Shown one piece after another: positions 11,734 through 29,128 of a DNA stretch of 32,000 nt. The notes under the pieces were generated by a model. That model searched no databases. It had not been told where the DNA came from and saw nothing but the letters and a program-made list of their open reading frames with translations. The position numbers were made by a program, and so were the translations under genes. Origin of the DNA: Schaalia meyeri. Its GTDB lineage: Bacteria; Actinomycetota; Actinomycetes; Actinomycetales; Actinomycetaceae. Positions within the stretch are counted from its first letter, which is position 1, and each line of letters starts with the position of its first letter. The stretch lies in assembly GCF_900105015.1 (NCBI RefSeq), contig NZ_FNLK01000015.1, forward strand, positions 151,702-183,701, in the 5' to 3' direction.

Positions 11734-12644
11734 ACACCGTCATCCACGCCGCCGGCCACGGCCTGGTCGCGACCACCGACTTCCTCAGCCCCCTGGACTT
11801 CTTCCGCGACCTGATGAACCCGGCGCTCGCGTTCCTGCCGCGCGCGCTGCTGATCGCCGTCGTCGCCGCCCTCGTGTGCGGCAGCGTCGGCGTGCACGTC
11901 GTCCTGCGCGGCATGGCCTTCATCGGCGACGCCGTCGCGCACTCCGTGTTCCCCGGCCTGGCGATCGCGTTCGTGTGCGGCGGGTCCCTGGTGCTCGGCG
12001 GGGCTCTCGCGGGCGTCGTGACCGCCGTGCTCGTGGCGCTGCTCGCGCAGAACCGGAGGCTCAAGGAGGACTCCGTCATCGGCGTGCTCTTCGTCGGCGC
12101 GTTCGCCCTCGGCATCGCGATCATCGCGCGCGCGCCGGGGTACGCGGGCAGCCTGCAGGACTTCCTTTTCGGGTCGATCACGGGCATCCCCGCCTCCGAC
12201 GTGCCCGTCGTGCTGGCTGGGGCTGCGCTCGTATTGCTCATGCTGTTCCTCGCTCACCGGCCCATCGTCGCGGTGACGCTGGACCGCGAGAGCGCCCGGG
12301 CGGCGGGCGTGCGCGTGCTCGCCGCGGACCTGTCCCTGTACGTCGCCGTGGCGCTCGCCGTCGTGATCTCCGTGCAGACGATCGGAAACGTGCTGGTCCT
12401 CGCGCTGCTCGTCACTCCCGCGGCCACCGCGCGACTGCTGTGCGATCGGCTGGGCACCATGATGGTTCTGTCGCCCGTTTTGGGGGCCGGCGGGGGCCTG
12501 GTGGGCCTGTACCTGTCGTGGGCGCTGGACGTGCCCACGGGCGCCACGATCGTCCTGGTGCTCACGGCGTGCTTCGTGCTCGCCTGGCTCTTCGCGCCGA
12601 GGCACGGCCTCCTCGCGCGGACCCTTCGCGAGAGGCGGGGATGA
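11730..12644 (+). CDS. Metal ABC transporter permease (ABC-3 / ZnuB-TroC family)
   Basis: Start at the internal ATG 11730 (ATGA overlap with the ATPase stop) rather than the track start 11592. The protein is polytopic and hydrophobic, with the typical segment LRGMAFIGDAVAHSVFPGLA. Confidence 0.85.
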   Translation: MNTVIHAAGHGLVATTDFLSPLDFFRDLMNPALAFLPRALLIAVVAALVCGSVGVHVVLRGMAFIGDAVAHSVFPGLAIAFVCGGSLVLGGALAGVVTAVLVALLAQNRRLKEDSVIGVLFVGAFALGIAIIARAPGYAGSLQDFLFGSITGIPASDVPVVLAGAALVLLMLFLAHRPIVAVTLDRESARAAGVRVLAADLSLYVAVALAVVISVQTIGNVLVLALLVTPAATARLLCDRLGTMMVLSPVLGAGGGLVGLYLSWALDVPTGATIVLVLTACFVLAWLFAPRHGLLARTLRERRG

Positions 12645-12686
12645 CGCCCTTGTGAGGGCTTCCGGCTGCGCTTGCGCTCGCGGAGG

Positions 12687-12766
12687 CGTCTCGCCCGTGG
12701 GGGTGTCTCGCTCGCGGGGGTGTCTCGCTCGCGGGGGTGTCTCGCTCGCGGGGGTGTCTTCCGGGG
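12687..12766. repeat. 17-bp GC-rich tandem repeat (TGTCTCGCTCGCGGGGG), ~4.7 copies
   Basis: TGTCTC cores at 12704, 12721, 12738 and 12755 are spaced exactly 17 bp apart, with a degenerate copy at 12687. The array is flanked by the 16-bp direct repeat CTGCGCTTGCGCTCGC at 12666-12681 and 12794-12809. Confidence 0.9.
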
Positions 12767-12910
12767 AACCCCGACGCGATCCCCGGCCGGCCACTGCGCT
12801 TGCGCTCGCCGGGTGTCTGGGTCCGGGCGCGTGTGCGTGCTTGTAAGCGTGTGTGCGCTTGCGGCTCGTGAAGCCCTGTTTCCCTGCCGGTATCGCCGAT
12901 CGTCGGCGAG

Positions 12911-12926
12911 TGTTTCACGTGAAACA
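12911..12926. promoter_or_regulatory. parS: parS centromere-like site (perfect TGTTTCACGTGAAACA; 22-bp palindrome 12908-12929)
   Basis: Exact 16-bp consensus in the intergenic region between the transporter operon and the repeat arrays. Confidence 0.85.
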
Positions 12927-13023
12927 CTCGTGCGGTGGACGTGGGGGTGGCGGTGTCCCGTGGCGTGCGCGTCGGCTCCGGCCCTGCGCTTCCCGGCGTC
13001 TTCCCATGATGTTGTCTGCCTCT

Positions 13024-13172
13024 TCTATGAGCTTCTATGGGGTTGATGAAGAGTTCTATGAGATACAAGTGGGGTTCTATGAGATAGAAACCGGGGTCTA
13101 TGAGATAGAAACCGGGGTCTATGAGATAGAAACCGGGGTCTATGAGATAGAAACCGAGTTCTATTATCAACG
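13024..13172. repeat. 21-bp AT-rich tandem repeat array; each unit holds the palindrome TCTAT-GAG-ATAGA (candidate operator or iteron array)
   Basis: TCTATG cores at 13034, 13055, 13076, 13097, 13118 and 13139, plus TCTATT at 13160, are spaced exactly 21 bp apart. An extra core lies at 13024. Three identical units TCTATGAGATAGAAACCGGGG span 13076-13138. The array ends ~30 nt before the GTG of the next gene. Confidence 0.9.
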
Positions 13173-13201
13173 ATCTTGATGACCTGCTGGGCGCCCTGGC
13201 T

Positions 13202-14629
13202 GTGCTTGAGCTGCGCGGTGGCGATACCACGTCGATCGAAGCGAAGACCTTTTCGGAATACACGCCGGAGCAGCTGGGGCCGACGTTGGGCTCGTTCGCG
13301 AACAAGCCGGGCGGAGGCGTGATCCTGCTGGGCGTGTCGGAGCGGGATGGGATCAACGTCGTCGGCGTCGATGACGTTGATGGCCTGTTGAAGAGAGCGG
13401 CTAACCAGGCGAGGAATGGTTTCAGCGCGCCGATCAGGGTAGATGTGCGTGCCTTTGATCTGGACGGCAAAGCGATCGGGGTCGTTAACGTTGAGGGCGC
13501 TAATGTGAACGAGAAGCCCGTGCGCTGGTTGAAGGATAAGAAAGCGTATCTACGCCAGTACGACGGGGACTATCAGATGGCGGTATCGGAGGAGCAGATG
13601 CTCCTGCTGCGCCATCGTCGACCAACTGCAGACGCGGACCCGGTGCGTGGCAGTTCGCCCCGCGATCTCGACCAGACCCTGGTGTCCCAGTACTTGGCAT
13701 CCGCTCGTGAAACTACGTCGCGTCTCGCCGACTATAGCGACGAGGAGGTTCTTTACAACACGGGCGTTGTTGCGGATCGCCAGAGCGGAGAGTTGTCGGT
13801 TGCCGGTCTGTATGCGCTGGGCGAGTATCCGCAGCGTCTTCTCCCGCACCTGACACTCACGGCAGCGGTTGAGGGGAGTGGGGATGTGAGGGCGGTGAAT
13901 CGGCGTGATTTTACGGGCGCGTTGCCGGTCATACTGGACGATGTCTTGGAGTGGGTCAGAGGGAACGTGGAGTCGAGGCAGCTTGTCACTCGTGACGGAG
14001 ATGGTCTGACGGAGTATGCGGTGCCGCTGCTGGCCGCCCGCGAGGTCAGCGCGAACGCGCTGGTTCACCGTGATCTTTCCGAGGCGTCGCGGGGAAAAGG
14101 TATTGATCTGAGGATCACCCGAGATGGGTTTCGTTTGACGAATCCCGGTGGCCTGTGGGGAATCACGGTTGACCGACTGGGTTGTGGTGACCACCCCGCG
14201 GTGAATGAACGACTCTACGGGATCTGCAGGAATGTGCATGGTCGCAGCGGGCGGGTGATCGAGGCGATGGGTACCGGGATCAGGGAGGTTCGCCGGTCGT
14301 TGCGCGAGGCTGGGATGGCGGAGCCACGTTTCTACGATAATGGGGTGTCGTTTACGGTCCGTTTCCCGAATTCGGCGCTGATTCCTGACGGTGACCTGGC
14401 GTGGCTCGGCGGGCTTGGACGGGACGTGGCGGTTGAGCTGAATCGGCGCCAGAAGGAGGCGCTGGTCGAGATGCGCCACGGGCGCACGTGGAGCAATGGA
14501 GAATATAGGGAGCACTTTGGTGTGACTGCTGAGGAAGCGCGCTCAGATTTGCGTGATCTCGTGTCGCGAGGCCTGGCAATCTCCACGGGTCAGCGTCGCT
14601 GGGTGCGCTACGAGCTTGCTGGGGAATAG
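13202..14629 (+). CDS. AlbA_2 (Schlafen/AAA_4-like) + HATPase_c_4 + C-terminal winged-HTH protein (often annotated 'putative DNA-binding / RecG-like ATP-binding protein')
   Basis: 475 aa. The N-terminus SIEAKTF...FANKPGGGVILLGVSERDGINVVGV matches the AlbA_2 pattern. REVSANALVHRDL...LTNPGGL...IEAMGTGIREV matches HATPase_c_4. The C-terminal segment LNRRQKEALVEM...LRDLVSRGLAISTGQRRWVRYEL is wHTH-like. A GTG start is assumed. Confidence 0.75.
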   Translation: MLELRGGDTTSIEAKTFSEYTPEQLGPTLGSFANKPGGGVILLGVSERDGINVVGVDDVDGLLKRAANQARNGFSAPIRVDVRAFDLDGKAIGVVNVEGANVNEKPVRWLKDKKAYLRQYDGDYQMAVSEEQMLLLRHRRPTADADPVRGSSPRDLDQTLVSQYLASARETTSRLADYSDEEVLYNTGVVADRQSGELSVAGLYALGEYPQRLLPHLTLTAAVEGSGDVRAVNRRDFTGALPVILDDVLEWVRGNVESRQLVTRDGDGLTEYAVPLLAAREVSANALVHRDLSEASRGKGIDLRITRDGFRLTNPGGLWGITVDRLGCGDHPAVNERLYGICRNVHGRSGRVIEAMGTGIREVRRSLREAGMAEPRFYDNGVSFTVRFPNSALIPDGDLAWLGGLGRDVAVELNRRQKEALVEMRHGRTWSNGEYREHFGVTAEEARSDLRDLVSRGLAISTGQRRWVRYELAGE

Positions 14630-14705
14630 CTGTTGCGCGGGGTAGTCCGTCTTTTCGGAGAGCCTGGCGGCCGCTGGCGGTTGTGGGTGGCGTGGCTCGT
14701 TGGCT

Positions 14706-15416
14706 TTAGGCGTTGTCTGGCTTTCTCAACACGATTCCCACAATGATGAAGGAATGGTCGTCTTGTTCCGACAAGAAGAGGCCAAGTGTCAAGTTTTCTT
14801 CCTCTTGTGTTCCGTCACTCTCTTTGGAACGTACAGTCGAGTATTCGTGTGGGCTCTCACCTGAACGTGCTGGTAGGCTTATCGCATGCTTCTCTGACAT
14901 TGACAGAAAGATGCAGATGCCGACGGTGTTGTCGGAGCGTTTGTAGCAGGGGTATACCTCATCGGTCGCGAGGTATGTGTATTCAAGTGGTTTGATGACT
15001 ACTTCGTGTTCGTGAAATACTTGCATGTCTTCCGCGAAACGGTCGCAGAAATCGCCGTCTTGGCATAGCTGCATGAGTTCTTCCGTGTCGCCGGTGTTGA
15101 ATGCGTATGCCCACAGGTCGAGGAATCGCTGCGCGGTTGCTTCTACGCCTTCCTTTCCGCCCGCGTAGAGGTTGGGTGGGGGAGTGGGCTTGGGGATGCT
15201 GACGGGTGTGGGGGTGGCGGACTGGGGAGCGTTGTCGGATTGGGTATAGGCATCGGACTGGGCCGACTGCGAGGATGCGGCGGCTTCGGCGTTTGCTGGC
15301 GTGTGTCCTGTGAACAGGCGGAATCCGAGGACAGAGCCGACCGCGACGATGGCCGTTGCGACGGTGCCAACGATCCACGGAGTGAGGCTGGTGAGGCGTG
15401 TTTGTTGGGTGGTCAT
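14706..15416 (-). CDS. Membrane-anchored DUF6318-like protein
   Basis: 236 aa with an N-terminal TM segment (WIVGTVATAIVAVGSVLGF) and a Pro/Thr linker. The domain ...GVEATAQRFLDLWAYAFNTGDTEELMQLCQDGDFCDRF... follows the actinobacterial DUF6318 pattern. Confidence 0.65.
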   Translation of the reverse strand: MTTQQTRLTSLTPWIVGTVATAIVAVGSVLGFRLFTGHTPANAEAAASSQSAQSDAYTQSDNAPQSATPTPVSIPKPTPPPNLYAGGKEGVEATAQRFLDLWAYAFNTGDTEELMQLCQDGDFCDRFAEDMQVFHEHEVVIKPLEYTYLATDEVYPCYKRSDNTVGICIFLSMSEKHAISLPARSGESPHEYSTVRSKESDGTQEEENLTLGLFLSEQDDHSFIIVGIVLRKPDNA

Positions 15417-15430
15417 CGGCTATCCCTCTC

Positions 15431-16356
15431 TCAGTGGCCTTGTTTTTCTTCTGAGGTGTCGGTGTTGTTGATGATGAGGTGGTCGAGGCGGAAGGGGTCG
15501 GTTGTTTCGGTGGTGGTGACGAGGCCGTTGATGGTTTGGGTTTCTCCGGTGAAGGGGTTGGTGGCCGTGCCGCTCCATGTTGTGGTCAGGGTGATGGTGC
15601 GTGTGGCCCGAGGGTAGGGGCCGTCGAGGAAGGACTTCCACCCGCCCGGTGCGGTGTAGTAGTGGCGTATCAGGGTCGGGTCGGTATTGGGGTCCATGCC
15701 CCTCACCCACGCCGCCCCCGGCGAAGACGTCACCGTGTTGGGTGTGTCGTCTCCCCAGTCCCACGTGTACTCCTGAGCGGTGAGGGTCACGGTGACATCG
15801 CGGCCCAGCAGGGTGACTGTGTGGGTTTGGGTAGGGTGACGAGGGTGGGGATACGCCGGTTCGTGTAGGACACCCCATCGGGACGCTTACGCAAACCCGC
15901 CCCATCAGCGTGGATCGTGGCAGCCGCATAGTAGAGGATCTCCCGTGTCGTAGGCACTGCTCCTGCAGACTCGGGCGTCCCACTCCGAGTGATGTGCGCG
16001 CACGCGAAAGGCGCCGACTCTGTCCCATCGGGCAACGTGACCGTGTGCATCGTCTTCCCATCACACTTGTCATCCGCCGCATACACCTGCGCCTCAGGCG
16101 AAGCGCTGGCATCCGCCGTCGTCCGACTTCTATCGTCTGACGCCGTCTAGCCGCTAGAGGACTCCTGGTTAGCTGCTTCCTGTGCCGCCGCAGAGGCTAC
16201 CGACTTAACCGTGGAGCCGTCACCGTCGACTTGAAAGTGCGGAGAATCCAAAGGAATCCCATCATCGGCGACGGCGCCTGGCGTAGCAAGCCCCACGAGA
16301 AGGCTAACAACCTGCAACGTCGAAACAACTGCGATTGAGGGCTTTATTCTAGGCAT
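15431..16356 (-). pseudogene. Secreted PKD-like protein gene, interrupted by an in-frame TAG (16147-16149) and one frameshift (~15790-15850)
   Basis: The 69-aa ORF (16356..16147) carries a signal peptide (MPRIKPSIAVVSTLQVVSLLVGLATPGAVA). It is in the same frame as ORF 16086..15787, and only one TAG separates them. ORF 15790..15431 continues in another frame (...THTVTLLGRDVTVTLTAQEYTWDWGDD...). Its ATG overlaps the stop of the upstream gene (GATGCCTAG). Confidence 0.5.
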
Positions 16357-17380
16357 CGGGCTTCACCGCGGTTCCTTCAGTTACGATCCACCTGTTGTCC
16401 CGCCACGTCATAAGTAATGCGACAACCGTTTGATAGTCCGAACCACTGGTCGTGATCTTCTGCCCCCGGCAGGTCGTGCCGTCAGATGAAGTGGTAAGGA
16501 AAGTGACAGAAATCGTATTGGGCGGCACGTCAGTATCAGTGGCGTCGACAGGGTCGACGCGGAGAATACGATCAATCGTTGAACGGTTATCGTATGTCCA
16601 TCCACTTGAGTATGTGTCTCGTATCTTGGAAGCCAGCTTCTGGTGGAAATCGTCTCCGCTATCTGACATATCCATGAACGGTGTGGTGTTTCCTGTGTTC
16701 CATGCGTAGACCAGGAGGGCGAGGTAGTGTTCGGCTGCGGCTTCTGCTCCTCGTTCGGTGTTTTCTGTGGCGGCCTGGGGGAGTTCGGGCAGGGTGTAGG
16801 TGGAGGCGGCGTGTTCGGCGGGGCGTACCAGGACGCCGTCGGGGCCGATCTGGTAGCCGCCCGGCATCGCCGCCTCACCCGACGCGCTCGGCGTCGGCGT
16901 GGGCGTGGGGGCCCGGCCCGACATGGCGGACCGCGTGGGAATAGCGGTGGGGTTCTCGCCCCAGGCGCGCCACCAGCCCTCGGCGACACCGTTGATGTAG
17001 ACGGCGTAGCAGCCCGCGACGATCAACAAGACGACGGCGATGCGGATACCCCAGTCCACCGGATCAGCACGCAGCCAGGCCACGCCCCCACCCGGGCCCC
17101 CACCGCCGAAGGCGGCACCCCCACTCTGACTGCCGCTGTCGAAGGTGGCGTCCCCCTCGCCGGACTGGCTTGTCCCGCTGCTGCGCCCACCGCCGCGCAC
17201 ACGCGGGACCCAGGCCCAGTCCGGCCGCCATCTCCTCGGGCCGATGAAACGCCGACCGAAGAGGCCTCGTCGGGGTTGAATGGAGCGCAGGAAGGCCTCT
17301 TCCTCCTCCTGGCTCACGGGTCGCTCGGACAGGGGTGGTATCTCCATGGCGTGTGCCCTCCACACTGAGGTCTCCTCCAA
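16349..17380 (-). CDS. Membrane protein with C-terminal DUF6318-like domain
   Basis: 343 aa with a Gly/Ser-rich N-terminal region and a TM segment IRIAVVLLIVAGCYAVYI. The extracytoplasmic domain ...RGAEAAAEHYLALLVYAWNTGNTTPFMDMS... is paralogous to the 14706-15416 product. The start may be the internal MEIPPL. Confidence 0.65.
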   Translation of the reverse strand: MEETSVWRAHAMEIPPLSERPVSQEEEEAFLRSIQPRRGLFGRRFIGPRRWRPDWAWVPRVRGGGRSSGTSQSGEGDATFDSGSQSGGAAFGGGGPGGGVAWLRADPVDWGIRIAVVLLIVAGCYAVYINGVAEGWWRAWGENPTAIPTRSAMSGRAPTPTPTPSASGEAAMPGGYQIGPDGVLVRPAEHAASTYTLPELPQAATENTERGAEAAAEHYLALLVYAWNTGNTTPFMDMSDSGDDFHQKLASKIRDTYSSGWTYDNRSTIDRILRVDPVDATDTDVPPNTISVTFLTTSSDGTTCRGQKITTSGSDYQTVVALLMTWRDNRWIVTEGTAVKPDA

Positions 17381-17698
17381 CGCTCCCCCACCACCGGGAC
17401 CGCGCCCTTACACACCACCATACGCCAAGAACCGACACGAAACAATAAGAATACACTGTAACCGTCATGCAACTATTCGCAACACGTCTGCGCGTATGTG
17501 CGTCGAGGTGGAGGTCCTCACCCCGATCGCGGCTGCCTTGTCGCTGAGCAGCGGGTACAAGGAATTTGGTGTGACGCGCGTACGCAGATGTAGATGGGCC
17601 GCCTTACTCTCTGCTTGACAGCCAGGGGCTGTCGATGGTGACAACGACCTATACGAAAGGAAAGACTGTGTTATGCCAGTTAAGCTTGCTGCCTCTTG

Positions 17699-17953
17699 CT
17701 ATAGGGCATCATCGGGTGTTCTCGCGATTATCGCAGTGAGTAGTCCAATGAGCGCAGGAATCGATGCGGTGGTGGTTGCCTCGCCGCTGATGCGCCAGGA
17801 GAGCCGACTTTTTTGCGGCCCGATGATCTGATGTATCGATGAGGCGCGCATTGGTCCAATAATGGTTTTGATTTGGGGTGAGCGATCCACACGGTCGGTC
17901 ATCAGCTGCTGATTCATGGTAGTGGCGTCCGAGTATTCTATGTGCAGTGCCAT
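17699..17953 (-). CDS. Hypothetical small protein (84 aa) with C-terminal hydrophobic segment
   Basis: ORF in a lower-GC intergenic patch. A weak SD (AGGA) lies upstream. The C-terminus IPALIGLLTAIIA is hydrophobic. No family was recognised. Confidence 0.2.
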   Translation of the reverse strand: MALHIEYSDATTMNQQLMTDRVDRSPQIKTIIGPMRASSIHQIIGPQKSRLSWRISGEATTTASIPALIGLLTAIIARTPDDAL

Positions 17954-18245
17954 ACGTCCTGGGAACGAAGAGGCCTAGTGCCTCGGTCGGCACCCTCCTC
18001 TTGTGGGTGGTAGCGTCGCCGTGACGCGGACGCTGTCACGCTGCAAGTTCACCTCAGAATGAACAAATGAGCGGTGTGCCAGAAGTATGAGCCACGCGAA
18101 GTTTGTCGCGCCTCGACGAACAACCATGCATTATAGTGCTACAGTGGCGGCTTCCTCAAGCAGGATGCGGACCTTGACGCTCACCATCCGGCCGAAGGCC
18201 GCAACCCTAAGATTAATAACGTTTGAGTTTGAGAGGGCTTGAGAC

Positions 18246-19772
18246 ATGGTTCCTAAAGGGCACAAGAATCGCTCCATCAAACGCCTCCATCTCGACCTGC
18301 GAAATCCTCGCCTGGGCCGTCCCGCAGTAAAGAACGAGGCAGAGGCCACGAGTCGGCTACTGAGGGAATTCGGGCCAAAGATCGTTGCCTTGGCGAAAAG
18401 TATCGCCGAACACGGTCTTAATCCCACCGAGTCTTGGGCAATCGTCCAAGAAGAGGGCAAGTACGTTGTCCTCGAAGGCAACCGACGCCTCGTCGCCTGC
18501 CGTCTCCTCGACAACCCCAGCAAGGCCCCCGACCCGCAGACAGTTGCAACCTTCGAGCGCATCAAACGAGGAGTCCGCACCACTAGCTCCTATCTGAACC
18601 CCAGCTGCGTAGAGTTCGAGCACCGCGCCGACGCCCGCTACTGGATCCACCTCAAGCACCATGGCGCAGGCAGCGGTGAAGGCACCGCCGCTTGGGGCCC
18701 AGAGATGGTCTACCTCGACCAGGTCAACAGCGGCAGCGCTCCTGTGGAGTGGAAGGAGTTCTGGTACTGGCTGGAGGAGACCTACCAGCACGACCGCCCA
18801 CTGGTCGACCTCATCGACCAGGCCCGACGCGAGCAGTACACCCTCATGGACCGCGTCTACACCTGGAAGGTCAAAGAGCTCCTCGGCGCCAGCTTCACCC
18901 AGCCCGGCCAGATCAACGTCAACGTCGACACCGAGAAGATCAAGCCGTTCATCCATGAACTCATCACCGGGATGCTTACACCTCAACCTAAGGATCCCAA
19001 AGCGCCCGGCGCTGCCGACATTCTCGTCATTTCCTCCCGCACTCTCAACAGCAGAGATGTCGCCAAGGAGATAATTGAGAAGGTGTGGACGGAAACCGTT
19101 GGAGAGGCCGACGTCACTCCCGCAATAGACATTGATACAGCCAAACCTTCGGGGGACACGGCAGATGCCGCGCCGACACCAGACTCTTCCACTCCAGATA
19201 ATGATGCTGCGAAAAGGGATCCGGGCGAGGATCCGGATCCTCACCCGAAAAACGACTCCCGATCCCGCCATCCCAAGCCCCGCAAGAGCGAGACCCACCT
19301 CTACAATGGCGTACGGTGCACCCGCATGCCCGACCGACTCCGGAAGCTGATAAAGGAGTGCGGCGAGCTAGAGATCAGTAAGCATCCTGAGATTGCGTCA
19401 GTCACGGCGCGCGTCGTGGTCGAGCTCGCCGCCGATGCACTCATCGACCACCAGAAGCTCAGGCCGAAAGGCAAGCAGCTCACTGACAAACTTGCCGCTG
19501 TCTTGCGTCACCTCGACCCTCTCCTGGACTCCAAGAACCCCACCCGCCTAGAGCTAGCTGGAACCTGGGCGGCAGTACGCACCGACACCGCTGACGGACA
19601 CTTCGTCCGCGACCTCCACAACTGTGTGCACTCTTACCAGTTCACGGCCGCGACCGAGATAGCCAAACGAGCAAACGCCCTGTTCACGCCCCTGCTCAAC
19701 GCCATCAACACCGACCTCGCCAAGCCGCCCGCTAGTGCGGTGGCCACGAGCAAGAAAAACGGGCAGGCTTGA
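18246..19772 (+). CDS. ParB/Sulfiredoxin-fold N-terminal domain protein with ~400-aa uncharacterised C-terminal region
   Basis: 508 aa with SD gagaggg upstream. The N-terminus reads IKRLHLDLRNPRL...GLNPTESWAIVQEEGKYVVLEGNRRLVACRLL. This is the ParB-N (GxxRxxA-type, Arg-Arg) motif. No known domain was recognised by eye in the remainder. Confidence 0.7.
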   Translation: MVPKGHKNRSIKRLHLDLRNPRLGRPAVKNEAEATSRLLREFGPKIVALAKSIAEHGLNPTESWAIVQEEGKYVVLEGNRRLVACRLLDNPSKAPDPQTVATFERIKRGVRTTSSYLNPSCVEFEHRADARYWIHLKHHGAGSGEGTAAWGPEMVYLDQVNSGSAPVEWKEFWYWLEETYQHDRPLVDLIDQARREQYTLMDRVYTWKVKELLGASFTQPGQINVNVDTEKIKPFIHELITGMLTPQPKDPKAPGAADILVISSRTLNSRDVAKEIIEKVWTETVGEADVTPAIDIDTAKPSGDTADAAPTPDSSTPDNDAAKRDPGEDPDPHPKNDSRSRHPKPRKSETHLYNGVRCTRMPDRLRKLIKECGELEISKHPEIASVTARVVVELAADALIDHQKLRPKGKQLTDKLAAVLRHLDPLLDSKNPTRLELAGTWAAVRTDTADGHFVRDLHNCVHSYQFTAATEIAKRANALFTPLLNAINTDLAKPPASAVATSKKNGQA

Positions 19773-19775
19773 TCC

Positions 19776-20663
19776 GTGAGGTATCTGTCCCCCCTGCGCT
19801 ACCCTGGTGGCAAAGCCCGCCTGGCCCCCTTCTTCGCCCGCTTGATCCGCGCCCAGATCCCCGCCCCGACCCACTACGCCGAGCCCTACGCAGGAGGTGC
19901 CGGCGCCGCCCTACGACTCTTGACCGACGGCGCCGTTGACCACATCCACATCAACGATATCAATGTTGGCGTTGCCGCGTTCTGGCGCACCATCACCGCC
20001 CCCGACGGCGCCAACGCGTTCTGTCAGCTCATCAACAACACCCTCGTCACCGTTGAGCAGTGGAACCACCAGAGAGCCATCTACCAGGCCGGTAAGGGAG
20101 ACGACCTCGCCCTCGGCTTCGCCACTTTTTACCTCAACCGCACCAACCGCTCCGGCATCCTCGACGCGGGCCCCATCGGCGGGTTCGAACAGGTCGGCAA
20201 ATGGAAGATTGATGCCCGCTACAACAAGTCGGCGCTTATCGAGAGGGTCAAACACGTTGCCGCCCTGGGCGACCGCATCCACGTCACCCAGCTCGACGGC
20301 CTCGACTTCCTCACCACAATGGAAGCCCACGCCACGGACGTCCTCGTCTATGCGGACCCGCCCTACGTCGAGCAAGGAGGAAGGCTCTATCTCCACGCCT
20401 TCAATGGCGACGACCATAAGGCTCTAGCCGAAAAACTACAGGCTGCGAAGTACCCATGGTTGTTGACCTACGACGATCAAAGGATTGTCTGGGACAACCT
20501 CTACGATGCCGCCCGCTGCGCCCGCTTTGATATTGCGCATACAGCTGCTATCCAGCATGTCGGCAAGGAGACCATTGTCTATGGCCCAACCCTCACAGTT
20601 CCCACAGATGTAGAGATTACCCCTGGAGTCAGTCCAACTTGGATTGAGAGGTCGCGCCACTAG
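19776..20663 (+). CDS. Dam-family (D12 class, alpha group) N6-adenine DNA methyltransferase
   Basis: 295 aa, with the GTG start 3 nt after the upstream stop. Motifs: LRYPGGKARL, EPYAGGAGAAL (AdoMet motif I), NRTNRSG, YADPPY (catalytic DPPY). Confidence 0.85.
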   Translation: MRYLSPLRYPGGKARLAPFFARLIRAQIPAPTHYAEPYAGGAGAALRLLTDGAVDHIHINDINVGVAAFWRTITAPDGANAFCQLINNTLVTVEQWNHQRAIYQAGKGDDLALGFATFYLNRTNRSGILDAGPIGGFEQVGKWKIDARYNKSALIERVKHVAALGDRIHVTQLDGLDFLTTMEAHATDVLVYADPPYVEQGGRLYLHAFNGDDHKALAEKLQAAKYPWLLTYDDQRIVWDNLYDAARCARFDIAHTAAIQHVGKETIVYGPTLTVPTDVEITPGVSPTWIERSRH

Positions 20664-20702
20664 GAGGAGACATGGGCACCACAGCCAGCCGGATTCGCTG
20701 GT

Positions 20703-20740
20703 CCCCGGGTGCTTGTGATCCGCGTGGTCGGCACCCGGGG
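20703..20740. terminator. Hairpin between convergent methyltransferase and hsdR genes (possible bidirectional terminator)
   Basis: CCCCGGGTGC (20703-20712) and GCACCCGGGG (20731-20740) form a perfect 10-bp inverted repeat with an 18-nt loop. There is no clear T-tract. Confidence 0.35.
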
Positions 20741-20757
20741 TGCGGCGCGCAGGAACT

Positions 20758-23700
20758 TCAGCTCCGCGCCGCGTCTCCCGTTGCCAGGTGTTCGGCCTGT
20801 TCAATCACGAGCCGCACGGCTTCTTCCTGCTTGTCGGGCGGGTACTTGTACCTGGCCAGCAAGCGTTTGATGCGCGATCGCATGCGGGCGCGGACGGATT
20901 CCTTGAATGTCCAATCGATGGTTGCAGACTTCTGGATGGTGGTGACCAGTTCGCGTGCGATGGTCTTCAACGTTTCGTCACCGAGCTCGAGGATTGCAGA
21001 GTCGTTCTGGATAATCGCGTCATATAGAGCGATCTCTGCCTCGTTCAAGCTCAGCTCACGCGATCGTTGCTGGTCCTGGCGCATCTCCTTGGCAAGCTTC
21101 ACCAACTCGGCGATGATCTCCGCCGTTGTCAGTGATCTGTTCGTGTAACGGCTCAATGCCTCGGCGAGCATCTGGGAGAACTTCCGGCCTTGCACCAGGT
21201 TCTTGCGTTGAAGCGTGCGAATCTGGTCGTCGAGCAGCCTACGCAGGAGCCCCAGCTGAAGATTCGGCTGGTTCGAGTGGGCGATGGAGTCCAAGAACTC
21301 GTCTGATAGCAGCGAAAGTTCTGGAGACTTCATACCCACGAATTGGAAAACGTCGACGACCTGGTCTGCGGTGACAGCGTCATTGACCATCTGGCCCAGT
21401 ACTGAGTCGAGGTTGCTGCCGCCTCGTTGGGACTGACCGGCATCAGGATTGAGGATCTTGAGTGCTGCCGCCCGAACGTCGGTGAACAGGCGTACATCAT
21501 CCCGAATGGTTTGTGATTCGGGACGCGAGGCAGTCAGAGCGTAGGCTTTTGCGAGTGCGAGCACCTGGTCGCTGTAGCGCTTGGTCAGATCCGGGTCTGA
21601 GAGCACGTGGTCCAGTACGGCGGCATACTGGGCTAGGCGCTCCTTCGCCGACAGTTCCGTTGAGGAGTCGTAGGTGACACCATGCAGCATCCCTCGGACG
21701 ATATCGTGTTTCTCAAGCATGACGTCAACGAGTTGTTCAATTGGCACACCGGCCTGCTCCCGGTCGGACGGCGAGTAGACGCTGAGCGCTCGCTGCAGGG
21801 AGGTGAACAGCCCAATGTAGTCGACGATGAGTCCGCCGGGCTTGTCCTTGAAACGGCGGTTGACCCGGGCGATTGCCTGCATGAGGCCGGCCCCTTGCAT
21901 GGGCTTGTCCACGTACATGGTGTGCATGGATGGGGCGTCGAATCCCGTGAGCCACATGTCGCGCACGATGACGAGCTCGAGTTCGTCATCGGGGTTCTTG
22001 GCGCGCAGCTTCAGATCGCGGCGCTCGTCCTTGGAGTGGATGTGCACCTGGAACTCTTCTGGGTCGGCCGCCGAGCCGGTCATAACGACTTTGATGCGGC
22101 CCTTGTTGATGTCGTCGGAGTGCCACTGGGGCCGCAGTGCTGTGATCTTGTTGTACAGGGCAACGGCAATACGGCGGCTCATGGTCACGATCATCCCCTT
22201 GCCAGCCATGGAGGCGCGGCGCTTCTCCCAGTGCGCCACGATGTCAGCAGCAACTGCATCCAGCCGGGAGTCCGCCCCGACCAGAGCCTCCAGGCGCGAC
22301 CACTTGGTCTTGGCCTGTTCGGCCTCACCCGTGCTGCTTGCCTCGCTACTGTCATCAACAATGGTGTCCAACTGGCCGAGCTGCTCCTCGTCCAAATTGA
22401 TCTTGGCCAGGCGGGACTCGTAGAAAATCTTGACGGTTGCGCCGTCTTCCACGGCGCGAGTGAGGTCGTAGATGTCGACGTAGTCGCCGAACACAGCACG
22501 GGTGGAGCGATCGTTCGACTCGATGGGCGTTCCGGTGAAGCCGAGGAACGTCGCGCCGGGGAGTGCGTTACGAAGGTGCTTGGCGAGCCCCGCTTTGAGA
22601 CGGCCTTGGCTGTCGAGGGTCTCCTCGAAGCCGTATTGGGATCGGTGCGCTTCGTCGGCCACCACAACAACGTTGCGCCTATCGGTGAGCACCGGGTTCA
22701 TGTCCCCGTCCTGGCCGGGAGCGAACTTCTGCAGTGTGGTGAAGATGATGCCGCCCGATGCGCGGGTGAGCAGCTGACGCAGGTTGTCTCGCCCCGTGGC
22801 CTGGACCGGGGTCTCGGGAAGGATCTGAGCAGGGGAGAACACCTCGCCGAAAAGCTGGTCATCAAGGTCGTTCCGGTCGGTGATGAACACCAGTGTTGGG
22901 TTGGACATGCGCTGGTCCCGCATGAGTTTGGCCGCGTAGAACACCATTTCGAAGCTCTTGCCGGATCCCTGGGTGTGCCACACCACGCCACCGCGCTTGT
23001 CCCCGTTTGGACCGGCTGCCCTGACTGTGGACTCAACGGCAGCGTTGACCGCCCAGTACTGGTGGTACTTCGCAATGCGCTTGATGATCATGCGGCGGCG
23101 TTGACCAGTGGCCGCGTCGGTGACGGGCTCGTCCGAGTAGACGACGAAGTTCCGCAGAATGTCGAGAAACCGTGCGGGGGTGAACACACCCTTGATGAGT
23201 ACTTCGAGTGCTGGAGGGTCTGTGACGATGTCGTGTCCGTCCATGGTCTTCCACGGAGCGTAGTGCTCGAAGCCTCCGGTGAAGGAACTCATCGCCGCAG
23301 ATGTGCCGTCGGAAATGACGGTGATGACGTTGGGGAAGAAGACCGAGGGAATCTGCTTGCGGTATGTCTGAATCTGGTTCCAGGCATTGCGCAGAGTTGC
23401 CTTTTCGTCCGTGGGATTCTTCAGCTCCATGAGGCCGACGGGCAGGCCATTGAGAAACACCAGCACGTCGGGGCGACGGTTGTGGCCCCCCTCGACGACT
23501 GTGAACTGGTTGAGTGCGCGCCAGTCATTGTTCGCCGGATCGTTGAAGTCAACGAGGCGCAGCCGTACTGTGGTGGGTCGACCATCCTCGCCGGTGGTTT
23601 CGACGGGCACGCCCGCCACCATGAGCTCATGAAGCCGCTGGTTCTCACTCATCACGTCCTGGGACTCGGCACGCTGAATGCGCGCGAGCGCGGAGCGCAC

Positions 23701-23904
23701 CAGATCATTCGACGCCCTAGGGTTGAGTCGGACAAGTGCTTCAGCCACGTACGACCACAGAACGCAGTCCCCGGGAGTCTCGCGCGCCTGGCCCACGGGG
23801 GCGTCAACAGGCGCGTATCCGGTGCGGTAACCGATCTCGGCAAGCCACTCCTTCGCGGCCTGTTCGACTGTCGATTCATCAAACCGGTAGACGGAACTAG
23901 TCAT
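20758..23904 (-). CDS. hsdR: Type I restriction enzyme, R subunit
   Basis: Start set at ATG 23904 (MTSSVYRFDES...), overlapping the hsdS stop (ATGACTAG). Motifs: PDVLVFLNGLPVGLMELK nuclease region, helicase motif I HTQGSGKS, DEAH box VVVADEAHRSQ, GFTGTPI. Confidence 0.92.
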   Translation of the reverse strand: MTSSVYRFDESTVEQAAKEWLAEIGYRTGYAPVDAPVGQARETPGDCVLWSYVAEALVRLNPRASNDLVRSALARIQRAESQDVMSENQRLHELMVAGVPVETTGEDGRPTTVRLRLVDFNDPANNDWRALNQFTVVEGGHNRRPDVLVFLNGLPVGLMELKNPTDEKATLRNAWNQIQTYRKQIPSVFFPNVITVISDGTSAAMSSFTGGFEHYAPWKTMDGHDIVTDPPALEVLIKGVFTPARFLDILRNFVVYSDEPVTDAATGQRRRMIIKRIAKYHQYWAVNAAVESTVRAAGPNGDKRGGVVWHTQGSGKSFEMVFYAAKLMRDQRMSNPTLVFITDRNDLDDQLFGEVFSPAQILPETPVQATGRDNLRQLLTRASGGIIFTTLQKFAPGQDGDMNPVLTDRRNVVVVADEAHRSQYGFEETLDSQGRLKAGLAKHLRNALPGATFLGFTGTPIESNDRSTRAVFGDYVDIYDLTRAVEDGATVKIFYESRLAKINLDEEQLGQLDTIVDDSSEASSTGEAEQAKTKWSRLEALVGADSRLDAVAADIVAHWEKRRASMAGKGMIVTMSRRIAVALYNKITALRPQWHSDDINKGRIKVVMTGSAADPEEFQVHIHSKDERRDLKLRAKNPDDELELVIVRDMWLTGFDAPSMHTMYVDKPMQGAGLMQAIARVNRRFKDKPGGLIVDYIGLFTSLQRALSVYSPSDREQAGVPIEQLVDVMLEKHDIVRGMLHGVTYDSSTELSAKERLAQYAAVLDHVLSDPDLTKRYSDQVLALAKAYALTASRPESQTIRDDVRLFTDVRAAALKILNPDAGQSQRGGSNLDSVLGQMVNDAVTADQVVDVFQFVGMKSPELSLLSDEFLDSIAHSNQPNLQLGLLRRLLDDQIRTLQRKNLVQGRKFSQMLAEALSRYTNRSLTTAEIIAELVKLAKEMRQDQQRSRELSLNEAEIALYDAIIQNDSAILELGDETLKTIARELVTTIQKSATIDWTFKESVRARMRSRIKRLLARYKYPPDKQEEAVRLVIEQAEHLATGDAARS

Positions 23905-25084
23905 CAACTGACTCCTTTCCAAACGCGTCCGCGACGAGCCGACCAGCCTCGTCGACTCGCATCCGCCCGCTCATCAGCTCCGGCAACAGTGTATCGCGGA
24001 GCTCAGCAAGCATCCTGGTTTCGATGGAACAATGATGTGCCATTTCTTCAAGTGTTGAAAGCTGTTCGACGACGGTCTTCTGCTCTTCGAGAGTAAGCAA
24101 AGGAACCTGTAGTGATCCAAGACTTGACGGGGAAAGTTCTGTCTGTCCCGTGGAACCCTCAGCCATTTGTTCAATCTCTGACTGGAGCGGAAAAACAAGG
24201 TACGGAAGAAGAACCGGTGAAATGCGCTGCCGGTCAGCCTTTACGACTGTCACGTGGCCGTCGACGTAGACGGGTTCCCGATAACTCCAACGACCGACTC
24301 TGCCGAGGGTCCCCTGGCCCGTTGAATTGACAAGTAAATCATCAAATTCTGCTATAGCGGATTTCTTCTCGCGCCTGCGAGGTAGCATCAGGCGTGCTGA
24401 GCTGAGCGACACCCATCCATCTCGAATGCATCTTTGATTCAAAACGCAGATAGGCGTTGCATTATGACCCTTGTAGTATTTTGGAGTAACTCCCCGCGAA
24501 ATAGACTCCGCATAGTAACTAAGCGGCACACATGACGTATTGCGTATTAAATAGTCCGTAATAGCGAGCCCTAGTTTACGGCAGAGAACTCGTCGGCGAT
24601 GGTTGAAGTCGATCTTGTCATCAAGTCTCCCCAGAAGGTCACCTATTGCCATTTGCTGCTCGTACGTGAAGTCTGCAATTTCGTACTCGGAAATTGTGTC
24701 CCAGTTTGCGCGAGGCATCCTTGTGCCCGTCGCAGAAGCCGAAGCGAGGTTGGTAAACTCAGGAAGTGCCGCTACGTAAAACAGAAAACGAGGATCAGTG
24801 CCGTTTTTCGGTTGAAACACCCAGAAGTCTGAAGAACAAATGCCGTAGCTTGACCCTGTCCATACTACCTTACGAAAGTATGGACGTAAACGGCCGTAGA
24901 TGGTGTCGTTAGGGAAAAAAGCTAACTTCGCACTGGAAACTGCTTTCGGCGTGTCCCACTGTGTAATATGGAGAGAGCCAGGAGCGATGCTGTCGTACCC
25001 AAGGTATTTGCAGTATTCTTTAAATTTGTCGGGTCGAACAAGTTGCCGACGTAGTTCTGCGATTTCACCAAACCTCACTGCCAC
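23897..25084 (-). CDS. hsdS: Type I restriction-modification specificity subunit
   Basis: 395 aa sandwiched between hsdM and hsdR, with overlapping stops and starts. It has a two-TRD architecture with conserved helical spacers (...LLPELMSGRMRV at the C-terminus). GC is visibly lower than in the neighbours. Confidence 0.85.
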   Translation of the reverse strand: MAVRFGEIAELRRQLVRPDKFKEYCKYLGYDSIAPGSLHITQWDTPKAVSSAKLAFFPNDTIYGRLRPYFRKVVWTGSSYGICSSDFWVFQPKNGTDPRFLFYVAALPEFTNLASASATGTRMPRANWDTISEYEIADFTYEQQMAIGDLLGRLDDKIDFNHRRRVLCRKLGLAITDYLIRNTSCVPLSYYAESISRGVTPKYYKGHNATPICVLNQRCIRDGWVSLSSARLMLPRRREKKSAIAEFDDLLVNSTGQGTLGRVGRWSYREPVYVDGHVTVVKADRQRISPVLLPYLVFPLQSEIEQMAEGSTGQTELSPSSLGSLQVPLLTLEEQKTVVEQLSTLEEMAHHCSIETRMLAELRDTLLPELMSGRMRVDEAGRLVADAFGKESVDD

Positions 25085-26646
25085 TCCTTGAGGGAGACGT
25101 GAATTTGTTCTTCAAGGAGGTGATCTATCTCGAACGCATTGAGAAGTTCGTTTGTCAGACGTGTTATTCTCTTCTCAATCGGCTCAGCATCGGGGTCGAT
25201 GGAGTCGTCGAGTCCGACGTACCGGCCGGGGGTGAGGATGAAGTCGTTGTCGGTGATTTCCTGGATAGTGGCTGCTTTGCAGAATCCGGGCACATTCTCG
25301 TAGTCATTGTACTCAGTCCGGGAGCGCCACGTATTGTACACACTGGAGATTCGCTCGATGTCATCAGCAGTGAGCTGACGGTGGGCGCGAGTGATCATCT
25401 CACCCGTGTTGCGCGCGTCGATGAACAATACCTCGCCGTGCCGGTCGCGGTGCCCGTCGCCATGACGGTTCTTGGAAAGGAACCACAGGCAGGCCGGGAT
25501 GCCGGTGTTGAAGAAGAGTTTGTCGGGCAGTGCCACGATGCAGTCCACCACGTCCGCCTCGACCATAGCTCGGCGGATGATGCCGTCAGTCTTTGCTTTG
25601 GAGGAGAGCGCCCCGTTCGCCATGACGAAGCCCGCGCTACCAGAAGGGCTCAAGTGGTAGAGGAAATGCTGAATCCACGCGTAGTTCGCGTTAGAGTCGT
25701 TCGGAGTGTCATACACCCAACGCGGGTCGTCCTGGAGTGTGGCGGACCAGTAGCCCTTGAGGTTGAAGGGCGGGTTGGCGATGATGAAGTCCGCGCGCAG
25801 ATCCGGGTGCTGGTCCTCGGTGAAGGTCTCAGCGTCCCGAGGGCCGAGGTCTGCCTCGATCCCTCTCAGCGCCAGGTTCATCTTAGCCAGTCTCCACGTG
25901 GACGCAGCCTTCTCCTGGCCGTAGATCGACAGTTCGTCGCGATTTCCGCCGTGCGCCTCAACGAACCTCGCGGATTGCACGAACATACCACCACTGCCGC
26001 AGCATGGATCGTACACGCGACCTGAAAAAGGCTGGAGCATCTCCACAAGGAGGTTGACGACGCTCCTTGGCGTGTAAAATTCCCCGCCGTCCTTGCCCTT
26101 CTCCGCGCCGGCGAACATACCGAGGAAATACTCGTAGACTCTGCCGAGGATGTCGTCGGCATTGTGATCGTCGTCAGCGCCGAATCCGATGGAGCCGATG
26201 AGGTCGATGAGTTCACCGAGCATCTCCTCCTTGAGGTCCTCGCGTCCGTAGTTGCGCGGCAGCACGCCCATGAGTGATGGGTTCGCCCGCTCAATCAACC
26301 GCATGGCCCCGTCGATTCGCTGGCCGATTCCGGGGAGTTTCGCCGCTGCTTGGAGCTGATCCCAACGCGCGCCGCCGGGAATCCAAAAGACGTTGTGACC
26401 AGAGTACTCGTCCCTGTCCTCCAGGAACGACCCGGTCTGCGCTTCGTCCAAGCCGTCCTCAACGAGCTCCCGGCGCAGCTCCTCCCGGCGCTCCGCGAAT
26501 TTGTCCGAGACGTACTTGAGGAACACGAGCCCGAGCACAACGTGCTTGTATTCAGAGGCCTCCTGGTTCCCCTTCGCCCGCATTGTTTCAGCGGTAGACC
26601 AAAGAGTTTGCTCAATACTCGGCGTCGTTCTTTTGTCTGTCGGCAT
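25075..26646 (-). CDS. hsdM: Type I restriction-modification N6-adenine methyltransferase subunit
   Basis: 523 aa. The N-terminal HsdM domain reads LWSTAETMRAKG...YKHVVLGLVFLKYVSD. Also present are the AdoMet motif VYDPCCGSGGMF and the catalytic motif IIANPPFN. Confidence 0.92.
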   Translation of the reverse strand: MPTDKRTTPSIEQTLWSTAETMRAKGNQEASEYKHVVLGLVFLKYVSDKFAERREELRRELVEDGLDEAQTGSFLEDRDEYSGHNVFWIPGGARWDQLQAAAKLPGIGQRIDGAMRLIERANPSLMGVLPRNYGREDLKEEMLGELIDLIGSIGFGADDDHNADDILGRVYEYFLGMFAGAEKGKDGGEFYTPRSVVNLLVEMLQPFSGRVYDPCCGSGGMFVQSARFVEAHGGNRDELSIYGQEKAASTWRLAKMNLALRGIEADLGPRDAETFTEDQHPDLRADFIIANPPFNLKGYWSATLQDDPRWVYDTPNDSNANYAWIQHFLYHLSPSGSAGFVMANGALSSKAKTDGIIRRAMVEADVVDCIVALPDKLFFNTGIPACLWFLSKNRHGDGHRDRHGEVLFIDARNTGEMITRAHRQLTADDIERISSVYNTWRSRTEYNDYENVPGFCKAATIQEITDNDFILTPGRYVGLDDSIDPDAEPIEKRITRLTNELLNAFEIDHLLEEQIHVSLKEWQ

Positions 26647-26896
26647 TGCGATTTCCTTAGCTATCTCCCGCTTGCTTCAACGGCTTGTCGATCACCGTGA
26701 GGGCTCGCAGGGAGTTGTGGTGTCGGTGTGTGATTCTAGCGGGGAGATCTCCTCCGATGTCTTCCGAGGTGCCCCAATCGACACGACAAAGGATCTTACG
26801 CTCAGAACCTTGACGGATCTGGTGGGAGTTTGATCGGCGAATGTCGCCGCCGACAGGAACCTTGGGACTCGGTCCCCCGGTCCCAAGGGCTCTGAC

Positions 26897-27646
26897 CTAC
26901 CCCTGACTCACCTCGGCCCGGATGAGGGGGATCGGGTAGGCGGCGGCCGAGATGGGGGAGAGGTAGGAATCGGTGATGCCCGCGGTGAAGGCGTCGATGC
27001 CGAGGACCTTGTAGAGGGCGTTGCGGCCGAACTTGGTGGAGTCCGCGACGAAGTAGGCGGTCGACGCGATCGCGCGGACCTTCTGCTGCAGCTCGATCGA
27101 GTAGCCGGAGGAGGCGTAGATGCCGTCCTCCATCACCGAGTTTGCCCCAAACACGGCGGTGTTCACGCGGATGTGGTCCAGCTGGTCGATCGCGGTCGGC
27201 CCCCACATGTGCGTCCGGTTGGGCAGCAGCTCGCCCCCGACGAACACCAGGTTCAGCGATGGCTTCTTGAGGATCTCCAGGCCAACCAGCAGGTCGTGCG
27301 TCACCACGGTGACGCGGCGGGCGTTGAGGGCGCGCGCAACCTCCAGGCACGTCGACCCCGAGTCGAGGAAGACGGACTGCCCGTCCAGGATCCGCTCCGC
27401 CATCGCCGGCCCGATCGCGCGCTTCTCGGCTCGGTTGGGCGAATCGTGCAGGAACTCCTCGGTGTCCTCGTCCTGCGGGACGGGGATCGCGCCTCCGTGG
27501 GTGCGGCGCACGAGGCCCGCCTCGGCAAGGTGCTCCAGGTCCCTGCGGATGGTTGACACGTTGACCTCGAGGGCTTCCGCCAGGGAGGACACGGTCTCGA
27601 AGCCTGTCGCCTCAATCATGGAAACAATGGTGTCTTGCCGGGTCAC
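26897..27646 (-). CDS. DeoR-family transcriptional regulator
   Basis: 249 aa with a GTG start. The HTH reads VSSLAEALEVNVSTIRRDLEHLAEAGLVRRTHGGA, followed by a DeoR C-terminal sugar-phosphate-sensor domain. It is divergent from the sugar ABC genes. Confidence 0.88.
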   Translation of the reverse strand: MTRQDTIVSMIEATGFETVSSLAEALEVNVSTIRRDLEHLAEAGLVRRTHGGAIPVPQDEDTEEFLHDSPNRAEKRAIGPAMAERILDGQSVFLDSGSTCLEVARALNARRVTVVTHDLLVGLEILKKPSLNLVFVGGELLPNRTHMWGPTAIDQLDHIRVNTAVFGANSVMEDGIYASSGYSIELQQKVRAIASTAYFVADSTKFGRNALYKVLGIDAFTAGITDSYLSPISAAAYPIPLIRAEVSQG

Positions 27647-29085: not shown

Positions 29086-29092
29086 CGAGGCG

Positions 29093-29128
29093 GCCCCGGC
29101 CTCGGCGCGAGAAAGGCGAGGCCGGGGC
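29093..29128 (+). other. Intercistronic GC-rich stem-loop between SBP and ATPase genes
   Basis: GCCCCGGCCTCG (29093-29104) and CGAGGCCGGGGC (29117-29128) form a perfect 12-bp stem with a 12-nt loop and no T-tract. Such hairpins commonly stabilise the SBP part of ABC operon mRNAs. A mirror copy lies at 29906-29941. Confidence 0.5.

Follow-up and report, generated by a model that had tools for sequence, protein, structure and literature searches.

We examined a 32,000-nucleotide (nt) window of a Schaalia meyeri contig (NZ_FNLK01000015.1, positions 151,702 to 183,701 of the forward strand), in which two adjacent forward-strand genes encode a protein with a predicted ParB/Srx-like N-terminus (component A) and a DNA adenine methyltransferase (component B). 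In the list of open reading frames (ORFs), component A is 508 amino acids (aa) long and begins with ATG (18246..19772), and component B is 295 aa long and begins with GTG (19776..20663). Three nucleotides separate the stop codon of A from the start of B (TCC, 19773..19775; the junction reads GCT TGA tcc GTG AGG), as had been recorded in an earlier note on this DNA. The GTG start is backed by alignment with the E. coli homologue, which runs end to end from residue 1. Actinomyces homologues (L001-L006) also have a spacer of 3 nt, and in other phyla the spacing ranges from -8 to about +90 nt. The earlier note also placed the pair close to, and convergent with, a complete hsdMSR operon, which we confirmed: 94 nt lie between the stop codons of B and hsdR.

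The proteins of both genes match models of the defence system PD-λ-5, which PADLOC and DefenseFinder list as PD-Lambda-5. Component A matches the PADLOC model PD-Lambda-5_A (PDLC03999) at 1.5e-82, with residues 2-508 aligned to positions 2-493 of the 493-residue model, and 25 further PD-Lambda-5_A models also match it. Component B matches PD-Lambda-5_B (PDLC04018) over its full length at 3.7e-104. In addition, A matches PHROG 9592 at 4.3e-45. We consider it likely that the pair belongs to the PD-λ-5 family as a member from the Actinomyces lineage, and that it forms an operon of two genes, complete in itself, beside an unrelated type I restriction-modification (R-M) system in a small chromosomal defence island. 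The mechanism that we propose for it below is the inferred part of this reading.

A functional selection for phage resistance in E. coli yielded PD-λ-5 (Vassallo et al. 2022, PMC9519451). The source was a 2,461 bp region of a P2-like prophage of strain ECOR7, tabulated as “ParB/HEPN, methyltransferase” and described by the authors as a compacted “RM+Abi” system, that is, R-M plus abortive infection (PMC9519451). As a cloned two-gene operon it protects against a broad phage panel, and it restricts T-even phages more strongly than λvir (PMC9519451). For the E. coli A protein, HHpred returned ParBc with 96.4% probability (residues 6-89) and DUF4145 with 35.6% (residues 388-418) (PMC9519451). For Actinobacteria, a count of defence systems already includes PD-Lambda-5 (Georjon et al., bioRxiv 10.1101/2023.03.30.534874). 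Thus, the pair belongs to a modelled defence family and lies in a phylum from which that family has been reported. The suggestion in the earlier note that this two-gene architecture was undescribed is contradicted by these publications and by the PADLOC models. Its view of the pair as a defence module with R-M-like logic agrees with the model matches and with the comparative evidence given below, and is essentially the published view.

For comparison with E. coli we used, in place of the ECOR7 proteins (RCQ13837.1 and RCQ13838.1), the pair from an E. coli P2-like prophage (L162). This pair comprises a 501-aa hypothetical protein and a 294-aa adenine methylase located between the replication endonuclease gene (gpA) and the portal gene, and the two proteins score 5e-168 and 8e-122 on the PD-λ-5 models. 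The window pair has the same gene order and orientation as the E. coli system and nearly its size (2,418 bp). In both, A is about 500 aa long with a ParB-like N-terminus and a putative, weakly HEPN-like C-terminus, and the D12 adenine methyltransferase B has a length of about 295 aa. The two systems differ in several respects. Window A aligns with the L162 protein at 35% identity in just its first ~150 residues (7-150, 2e-21), followed by a weak C-terminal stretch that is collinear, and B is 38% identical over its full length (2e-74). The E. coli pair occupies a P2 prophage hotspot, whereas the window pair is found in a chromosomal island beside type I R-M genes; the spacer is about 70 nt in E. 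coli and 3 nt here, and the linker of window A is longer and rich in Pro and Asp.

The A family is large, with 6,263 representative clusters at E<=1e-3, of which 1,707 at E<=1e-30 align end to end. We took 160 related loci, half from genomes of many phyla and half (80) from IMG/VR viral contigs. A B-type methyltransferase gene occurs within ~150 nt in 118 of the 118 loci with an intact A (>=430 aa), where the count records the presence of a B-type gene by tblastn high-scoring segment pairs and not proven integrity of B. In all but two (116/118) B is co-oriented and within 100 nt, in the order A then B. When the integrity of B was considered in these 118 loci, 114 genes were uninterrupted, two were cut by a contig end, one carried a frameshift (L046) and one was decayed (L038). 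The reverse does not hold: an intact B stands next to an interrupted A in six loci, and of the ~65 B-type methyltransferases on viral contigs about 25 lack an A within 4 kb, one of these adjoining an integrase. Pairing is therefore near-obligatory for A across phyla and in prophages, which bears out the proposal in the earlier note that A and B are functionally coupled and comes from the gene-neighbourhood comparison that the note had recommended.

The decayed locus is that of an isolate genome, Bartonella sp. CB60 (L038, 5926-8269). Its B gene has four in-frame stop codons and encodes DPPH in place of DPPY. The A reading frame remains open and keeps the N-terminal motifs, and among 110 distinct full-length family members this A is the sole one to lack E371, R389 and H462. 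This may be a natural case of a disarmed effector. The asymmetry between A and B would fit the logic of R-M systems, in which a methyltransferase can stand alone or switch partners and an effector cannot. Together with the single Bartonella example, it points to the C-terminal domain of A as the probable harmful part. The idea in the earlier note that the ParB-like protein is an effector made tolerable by the methyltransferase is therefore plausible, being consistent with the absence of intact A without B, the frequency of B without A, and the Bartonella locus.

The same asymmetry is what would be expected of post-segregational killing, and we considered whether the pair is an addiction module, similar to a toxin-antitoxin system, that stabilises its carrier element or island, with A as the toxin, methylation by B as the antidote and phage defence as at most a side effect. 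The pair is frequent on prophages and near insertion sequences or conjugation genes, and in Bartonella the decay of B coincides with loss of the invariant C-terminal residues of A, both as such a module would have it. The discovery of PD-λ-5 by selection for phage resistance does not fit this explanation, and no mobility genes were found among the window ORFs that were scanned with Pfam, nor any tRNA in the window. Addiction and defence are, moreover, not exclusive, as classical R-M systems do both. We regard addiction as the principal role as improbable, and continue with PD-λ-5 defence.

Two observations concern relatives with other partners. On one IMG/VR contig (L173, 1958-5661), a B-type D12 methyltransferase that is 43% identical to window B lacks an A partner, and its neighbours are an AAA_15/AAA_21 ATPase and a GmrSD_C (DUF1524) nuclease; from this locus, the B-type family seems to be reused with other effector sets. 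Further IMG/VR loci (L116, L119, L120, L128, L132, L135-L137, L140-L144, L149, L152, L154 and L155) encode a shorter A-like protein of ~366 aa that has only the N-terminal ~140 residues in common with A. At these loci a gene of ~350 aa intervenes between it and a B-type methyltransferase, which is encoded ~1 kb away on the other strand. Coliphage Wphi (L161) has an equivalent trio, gp98, gp96 and Mth, in which the D12 enzyme is replaced by a C5-cytosine methylase, Mth (PF00145); gp98 has a further match, to the PADLOC candidate PDC-M38A. These loci could represent a related three-gene variant with a swapped methyltransferase type.

Component B is a D12-class (alpha-type) N6-adenine DNA methyltransferase, as the earlier note had it. 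The MethyltransfD12 search that the note proposed gave a match (PF02086, 3.2e-14), and the protein contains EPYAGGAG and DPPY motifs. The DPPY catalytic motif IV (residues 194-197, 20355..20366) was located in the translation; D194-Y197 are invariant in our alignment of B (A3), and DPPY is present in 140 of 144 B homologues. Cloning of the E. coli system required a strain deleted for the mrr-containing region (PMC9519451). In our reading of this methods statement, the requirement suggests that the E. coli B is an active DNA methyltransferase and, by analogy, that window B may be one as well. An orphan Dam (GATC) methyltransferase was rejected: against the Dam model TIGR00571 B scores 50.6, where the cut-off is 114.85, and B is paired with A here and in relatives.

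The structure of A was modelled with AlphaFold using 24 homologues (mean predicted local distance difference test score, pLDDT, 79.3). The model has four parts: an N-terminal α/β domain, a helical middle, a disordered linker and a C-terminal helical bundle. The N-terminal domain (residues ~1-125, 18246..18620) is delimited by Foldseek, the family profile and conservation as a ParB/Srx-like fold. It contains a box-I-like D17-x2-N20-P-R22 and a box-II-like E77-G-N-R-R81-x2-A84, and the Arg-Arg motif string VVLEGNRRLVACRLL is present in the sequence. By alignment and conservation, the LEGNRRLVA motif (residues 76-84, 18471..18497) corresponds to ParB box II, GERRxRA, which forms the phosphate-binding loop of the nucleotide pocket. 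The A family profile matches Helicobacter pylori ParB (4umk) at 2.8e-5, with LEGNRRLaA placed on IAGERRLRA. In Foldseek searches of the PDB with the A model, the top hits were ParB structures with CDP or CTP (6sdk, 7bnr and 7bnk, probability 0.9-0.98) and sulfiredoxin (6ky4, probability 1.0, template modelling (TM) score 0.62), and Noc and KorB were also returned. Against viral models, the neighbours were ParB/Srx, GmrSD-N/DUF262 and DndB-like proteins.

Profile searches for known domains gave a different result. No Pfam domain, ParBc included, matches A even at E<=1; the ParBc search (PF02195) proposed in the earlier note thus found nothing. Matches to NCBIfam ParB and RepB models are all below threshold, with 20.3 bits for the ParB model TIGR00180 (cut-off 58.45). 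Because ParBc is silent and TIGR00180 falls below its cut-off, the ParB/Srx assignment comes from remote methods only, and on these we predict the fold. The ParB-N domain with an Arg-Arg motif described in the earlier note accordingly stands as far as the motif and the remote similarity are concerned, and the family-level assignment by ParBc or TIGR00180 fails.

Conservation was assessed in the 110 distinct full-length members mentioned above, which come from many phyla. N20, R22, L76-E-G-N-R-R81, H138 and W150 are invariant, and D17, R127, R203, E371, R389, E393 and H462 are conserved in 86-99% of the proteins. Several of these residues (R127, H138, W150 and R203) lie in the helical middle region (residues ~127-290, 18624..19115). 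The A profile shows a weak, collinear second stretch of similarity on the ParB helix-turn-helix (HTH) region, which is non-significant alone, and Foldseek alignments run for ~290 columns across the ParB N-terminal and HTH domains. The middle region may therefore be a DNA-binding region similar to the ParB HTH.

A disordered, Pro/Asp/Thr-rich linker of variable length follows (residues 295-342, 19128..19271, pLDDT <50), which is gap-rich and unconserved in our alignment of A (A1). It leads into a six-helix bundle (residues 343-497, 19272..19736), defined by the domain model and conservation, that we consider a putative non-canonical HEPN-like effector. Modelled in isolation, this domain reached a pLDDT of 86.3, and it carries the near-invariant E371, R389, E/D393 and H462. 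Its best interpretable Foldseek neighbours are HEPN proteins (4nqf at E 0.68, 1wol, 8xeh and Csm6), with E values of 0.7-3 and TM scores of 0.43-0.57, none of them significant. A search of PDB sequences with the profile of this domain returned nothing meaningful. The canonical HEPN motif Rx4-6H is not conserved among the 110 members; the family has instead the motif [LMF]-[NHQ]-x-[YFC]-[VI]-H-[NS] and an invariant R-x3-[ED] in the first long helix. These features are suggestive only, so we describe the domain as HEPN-like and do not claim membership. The earlier note had found no domain in the ~400 residues after the ParB-like region. We found these residues conserved family-wide and ending in the helical, weakly HEPN-like domain with E371, R389, E393 and H462; the structure prediction and Foldseek search that the note had recommended gave this result along with the ParB/Srx N-terminus.

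The ParB-like features of A raise the question of whether the pair has a role other than defence. In one scenario a prophage-type element would have contributed B, as an adenine methyltransferase of orphan, regulatory or anti-restriction type, and A would be a ParB/KorB-like DNA-binding regulator or partition protein. Phages and plasmids commonly encode both ParB-family proteins and Dam-like methyltransferases, ParB, Noc and KorB are among the structural neighbours of A, and solitary B-type methyltransferases occur in viral contigs. However, A scores far below the ParB cut-off and B below the Dam cut-off given above, no gene for a ParA partner was found among the neighbouring ORFs scanned against Pfam, and the conserved C-terminal domain of A is unrelated to ParB dimerisation domains. 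Furthermore, strict dependence of A on B would be unexpected of a regulator, and the E. coli homologue has a defence phenotype. We give this scenario very little weight. A ParB of a ParABS partition system was rejected on the TIGR00180 score and on the absence of a ParA-type ATPase among the ORFs scanned.

The defence reading can also be compared with known systems that resemble the pair in part. As in classical type II R-M systems, a methyltransferase that can be solitary is combined with a partner of which no intact copy was seen by itself; the two mobile genes are closely linked, and self DNA is presumably marked by methylation. Unlike these systems, A has no recognised restriction endonuclease fold (PD-(D/E)XK, HNH, GIY-YIG or PLD), since it has no Pfam match and its neighbours are ParB/Srx and HEPN-like proteins, and it carries a ParB/Srx nucleotide-pocket domain. 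The strong restriction of T-even phages by the E. coli homologue is likewise atypical for type II enzymes.

A second group, the ParB/Srx-fold (DUF262-type) proteins of modification-dependent defence GmrSD, SspE, DndB and PD-T4-2A, resembles A in having an N-terminal domain of this superfamily with a [DE]G-x-x-R phosphate loop, combined with a C-terminal or partner nuclease in a DNA-modification context, and GmrSD_N and DndB-like proteins are among the structural neighbours of A. However, A has no Pfam match to DUF262 or DndB, its putative effector is a helical HEPN-like bundle and not DUF1524 or HNH, and the cognate mark would be N6-methyladenine (m6A) made by a D12 enzyme and not phosphorothioation, so that A would not be a type IV enzyme that attacks modified DNA. 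A Dnd- or Dpd-type ParB-like protein (DndB or DpdB) was rejected as well: A has no such Pfam match, and the window ORFs that were scanned with Pfam include no dnd or dpd cluster genes.

The CTPase clamps ParB, Spo0J and KorB have in common with A the N-terminal fold, the box-I-like NPR and the box-II-like GNRRxxA, and the HTH-like region may also match. A differs from them in having no ParA partner found, a score below the TIGR00180 cut-off, no recognised box III, an unrelated C-terminal domain and an obligatory methyltransferase partner.

The neighbouring type I R-M operon lies on the reverse strand (20758..26646) and comprises hsdM (25075-26646), hsdS (23897-25084) and hsdR (20758-23922), identified by Pfam and by PADLOC models for REase_I, Specificity_I and MTase_I. 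The closest A homologues, 92-93% identical, come from Actinomyces sp. HMSC035G02 and an uncultured Actinomyces metagenome-assembled genome (MAG), and an identical A occurs in other assemblies in the same hsd context (L163). A 75%-identical pair on related Actinomyces contigs from human oral metagenomes (L167-L170), also with 3-nt spacing, adjoins IS110 and a type IV secretion system coupling protein and has no type I genes. The occurrence of this pair without type I R-M indicates that the pair is autonomous and that its closeness to hsdMSR reflects clustering in a defence island.

We nevertheless weighed the possibility that the pair works with hsdMSR, for example as a back-up or abortive infection layer when the type I enzyme is inhibited, like PrrC with EcoprrI. 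The short convergent spacing to hsdR, its recurrence in L163 and the term “RM+Abi” used by Vassallo et al. speak for such a partnership. The adjacency is specific to one lineage, however, as the 75%-identical pair demonstrates; the E. coli pair at the P2 hotspot lies between phage replication and portal genes and works as a cloned two-gene operon, and the pair has its own methyltransferase. Functional coupling to hsdMSR was therefore rejected, as the adjacency is not conserved, and we rate it as highly unlikely. PD-λ-5 as an autonomous operon remains the reading that we follow here.

The hsdS gene is polymorphic among assemblies with an identical A: the protein is 395 aa long in the window (23897-25084) and 255 aa long in L163 (7174-7941). 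In L163 a 430-nt gap precedes hsdM, and in the window the GC content falls to 0.50 at 24-25 kb, within the hsdS stretch. A difference of this kind is typical of specificity-subunit shuffling or decay.

Within the 94-nt intergenic region between B and hsdR (20664..20757), a hairpin rich in GC, CCCCGGGUGC...GCACCCGGGG, may act as a terminator in both directions. The region as a whole folds no better than shuffled sequences (non-significant z-score), and a terminator scan found no canonical T-tract terminator around the operon. Upstream of A, 865 nt (17381-18245) are mostly non-coding, and a consensus promoter scan of this side gave nothing convincing on the forward strand. An 84-aa ORF on the reverse strand (17699-17953) is called in all near-identical contigs (L163-L166) and has no family match in PADLOC or PHROGs.

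From left to right, the window, which looks chromosomal and Actinomyces-like, encodes ddl, an aminotransferase and a ZnuA-type ABC transporter, followed by a Schlafen/AlbA_2 protein and two DUF6318 proteins; then come the pair, hsdRSM and a DeoR regulator. The GC content steps from 0.69-0.73, with negative GC skew, in the ZnuA/ABC block at 6-13 kb (6001-13000) to 0.50-0.63 at 13-27 kb (13001-27000), which is consistent with horizontal acquisition of the latter segment. tRNA and Rfam scans of the window gave no match, and no integrase or transposase was found among its ORFs scanned against Pfam. With no tRNA and no integrase, the boundary of an integration site is not definable. The accessory character that the earlier note ascribed to this segment is thus suggested by the GC step, and the tRNA, Rfam, integrase and transposase searches add nothing to it.

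At the edge of the lower-GC segment is a forward-strand gene (13202-14629) for a 475-aa protein with Schlafen AlbA_2 and HATPase_c_4 domains. It has weak PADLOC matches to pAgo-associated proteins (2e-13) and falls in a PHROG “DNA helicase” family, and it may be another gene involved in defence or regulation. Between this gene and the pair, the reverse strand encodes two paralogous DUF6318 proteins (14706-15416 and 16349-17380) whose N-termini are rich in Pro, Ser and Thr.

At its right end the window folds back on itself perfectly, with arms at 27034-29253/29781-32000 and 29252-29466/29567-29781 that are 100% complementary around a 100-nt centre. This fold-back duplicates the DeoR regulator and a sugar-binding protein in inverted orientation (27034-29466, 29567-32000). 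At the same locus in another assembly (L163), an ABC ATPase comes after the sugar-binding protein, unlike in the window. The fold-back looks like an assembly artefact (a chimeric hairpin contig) and not biology.

For the pair itself, we propose a mechanism in four steps. B would be active as an N6-adenine methyltransferase and mark host DNA at a short motif. A would be a sensor-effector: its ParB/Srx N-terminal domain, in which the residues of boxes I and II of a nucleotide-triphosphate pocket are retained, and its putative DNA-binding helical region would together engage DNA and read the presence of the B mark. On unmarked, invading DNA, A would license its C-terminal HEPN-like domain, with the R389/E393/H462 constellation in place of Rx4-6H, to degrade nucleic acid and so stop the infection, be it by direct restriction or through abortive infection. 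In a cell lacking B, self would become the target of A, and this would account for the absence of solitary intact A.

A more specific version of this mechanism, in which A of PD-λ-5 is a mechanistically new kind of restriction factor, is a tentative idea that we think less likely than not. A nucleotide-gated, ParB-type clamp would load on DNA and scan it for the m6A of its partner, and unmarked DNA would switch on the non-canonical HEPN-like domain, with its R-x3-E...H triad in place of Rx4-6H.

Several points weigh against these proposals. Nucleotide binding by the ParB-like domain is suggested by motif conservation only, and no equivalent of ParB box III (ENLQR-type) was identified in A. The HEPN assignment is weak, given the Foldseek E values of 0.7-3, the absence of Rx4-6H and the 35.6% for DUF4145 in the published HHpred analysis. 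A simple reader of unmethylated adenine would not predict that the E. coli system acts more strongly on T-even phages than on λvir, and this preference hints at another trigger. Protection against phage is known by experiment only for the E. coli member, so that the same function in the window pair is presumed by analogy. The comparative asymmetry comes from loci found through the N-terminal motif of A, with Bartonella as a single example, and one locus (L046, from a long-read MAG) has an apparently intact A beside a frameshifted B, where the frameshift may be a sequencing error. Finally, a literature search for the mechanism of PD-λ-5 gave no mechanistic paper in the library searched, and only comparative-genomics papers on BREX and Dnd.

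In combination, the results indicate that the annotation of the pair should read PD-λ-5 defence system and that of the locus a two-system defence island, with PD-λ-5 and type I R-M. The question at stake is the mechanism of the family and not of this single locus. It is sharpened by the finding that intact A was never seen without a B-type gene nearby, by the set of residues that is invariant across phyla, and by the C-terminally “disarmed” A at the one locus where B has decayed; R80/R81, R389, E393 and H462 are singled out as the residues on which it turns. If the clamp reading is true, the Bartonella locus would be a natural record of the toxicity of A, and the actinobacterial clade, which combines a long disordered linker with coupled translation, would offer a second tractable model of the system.

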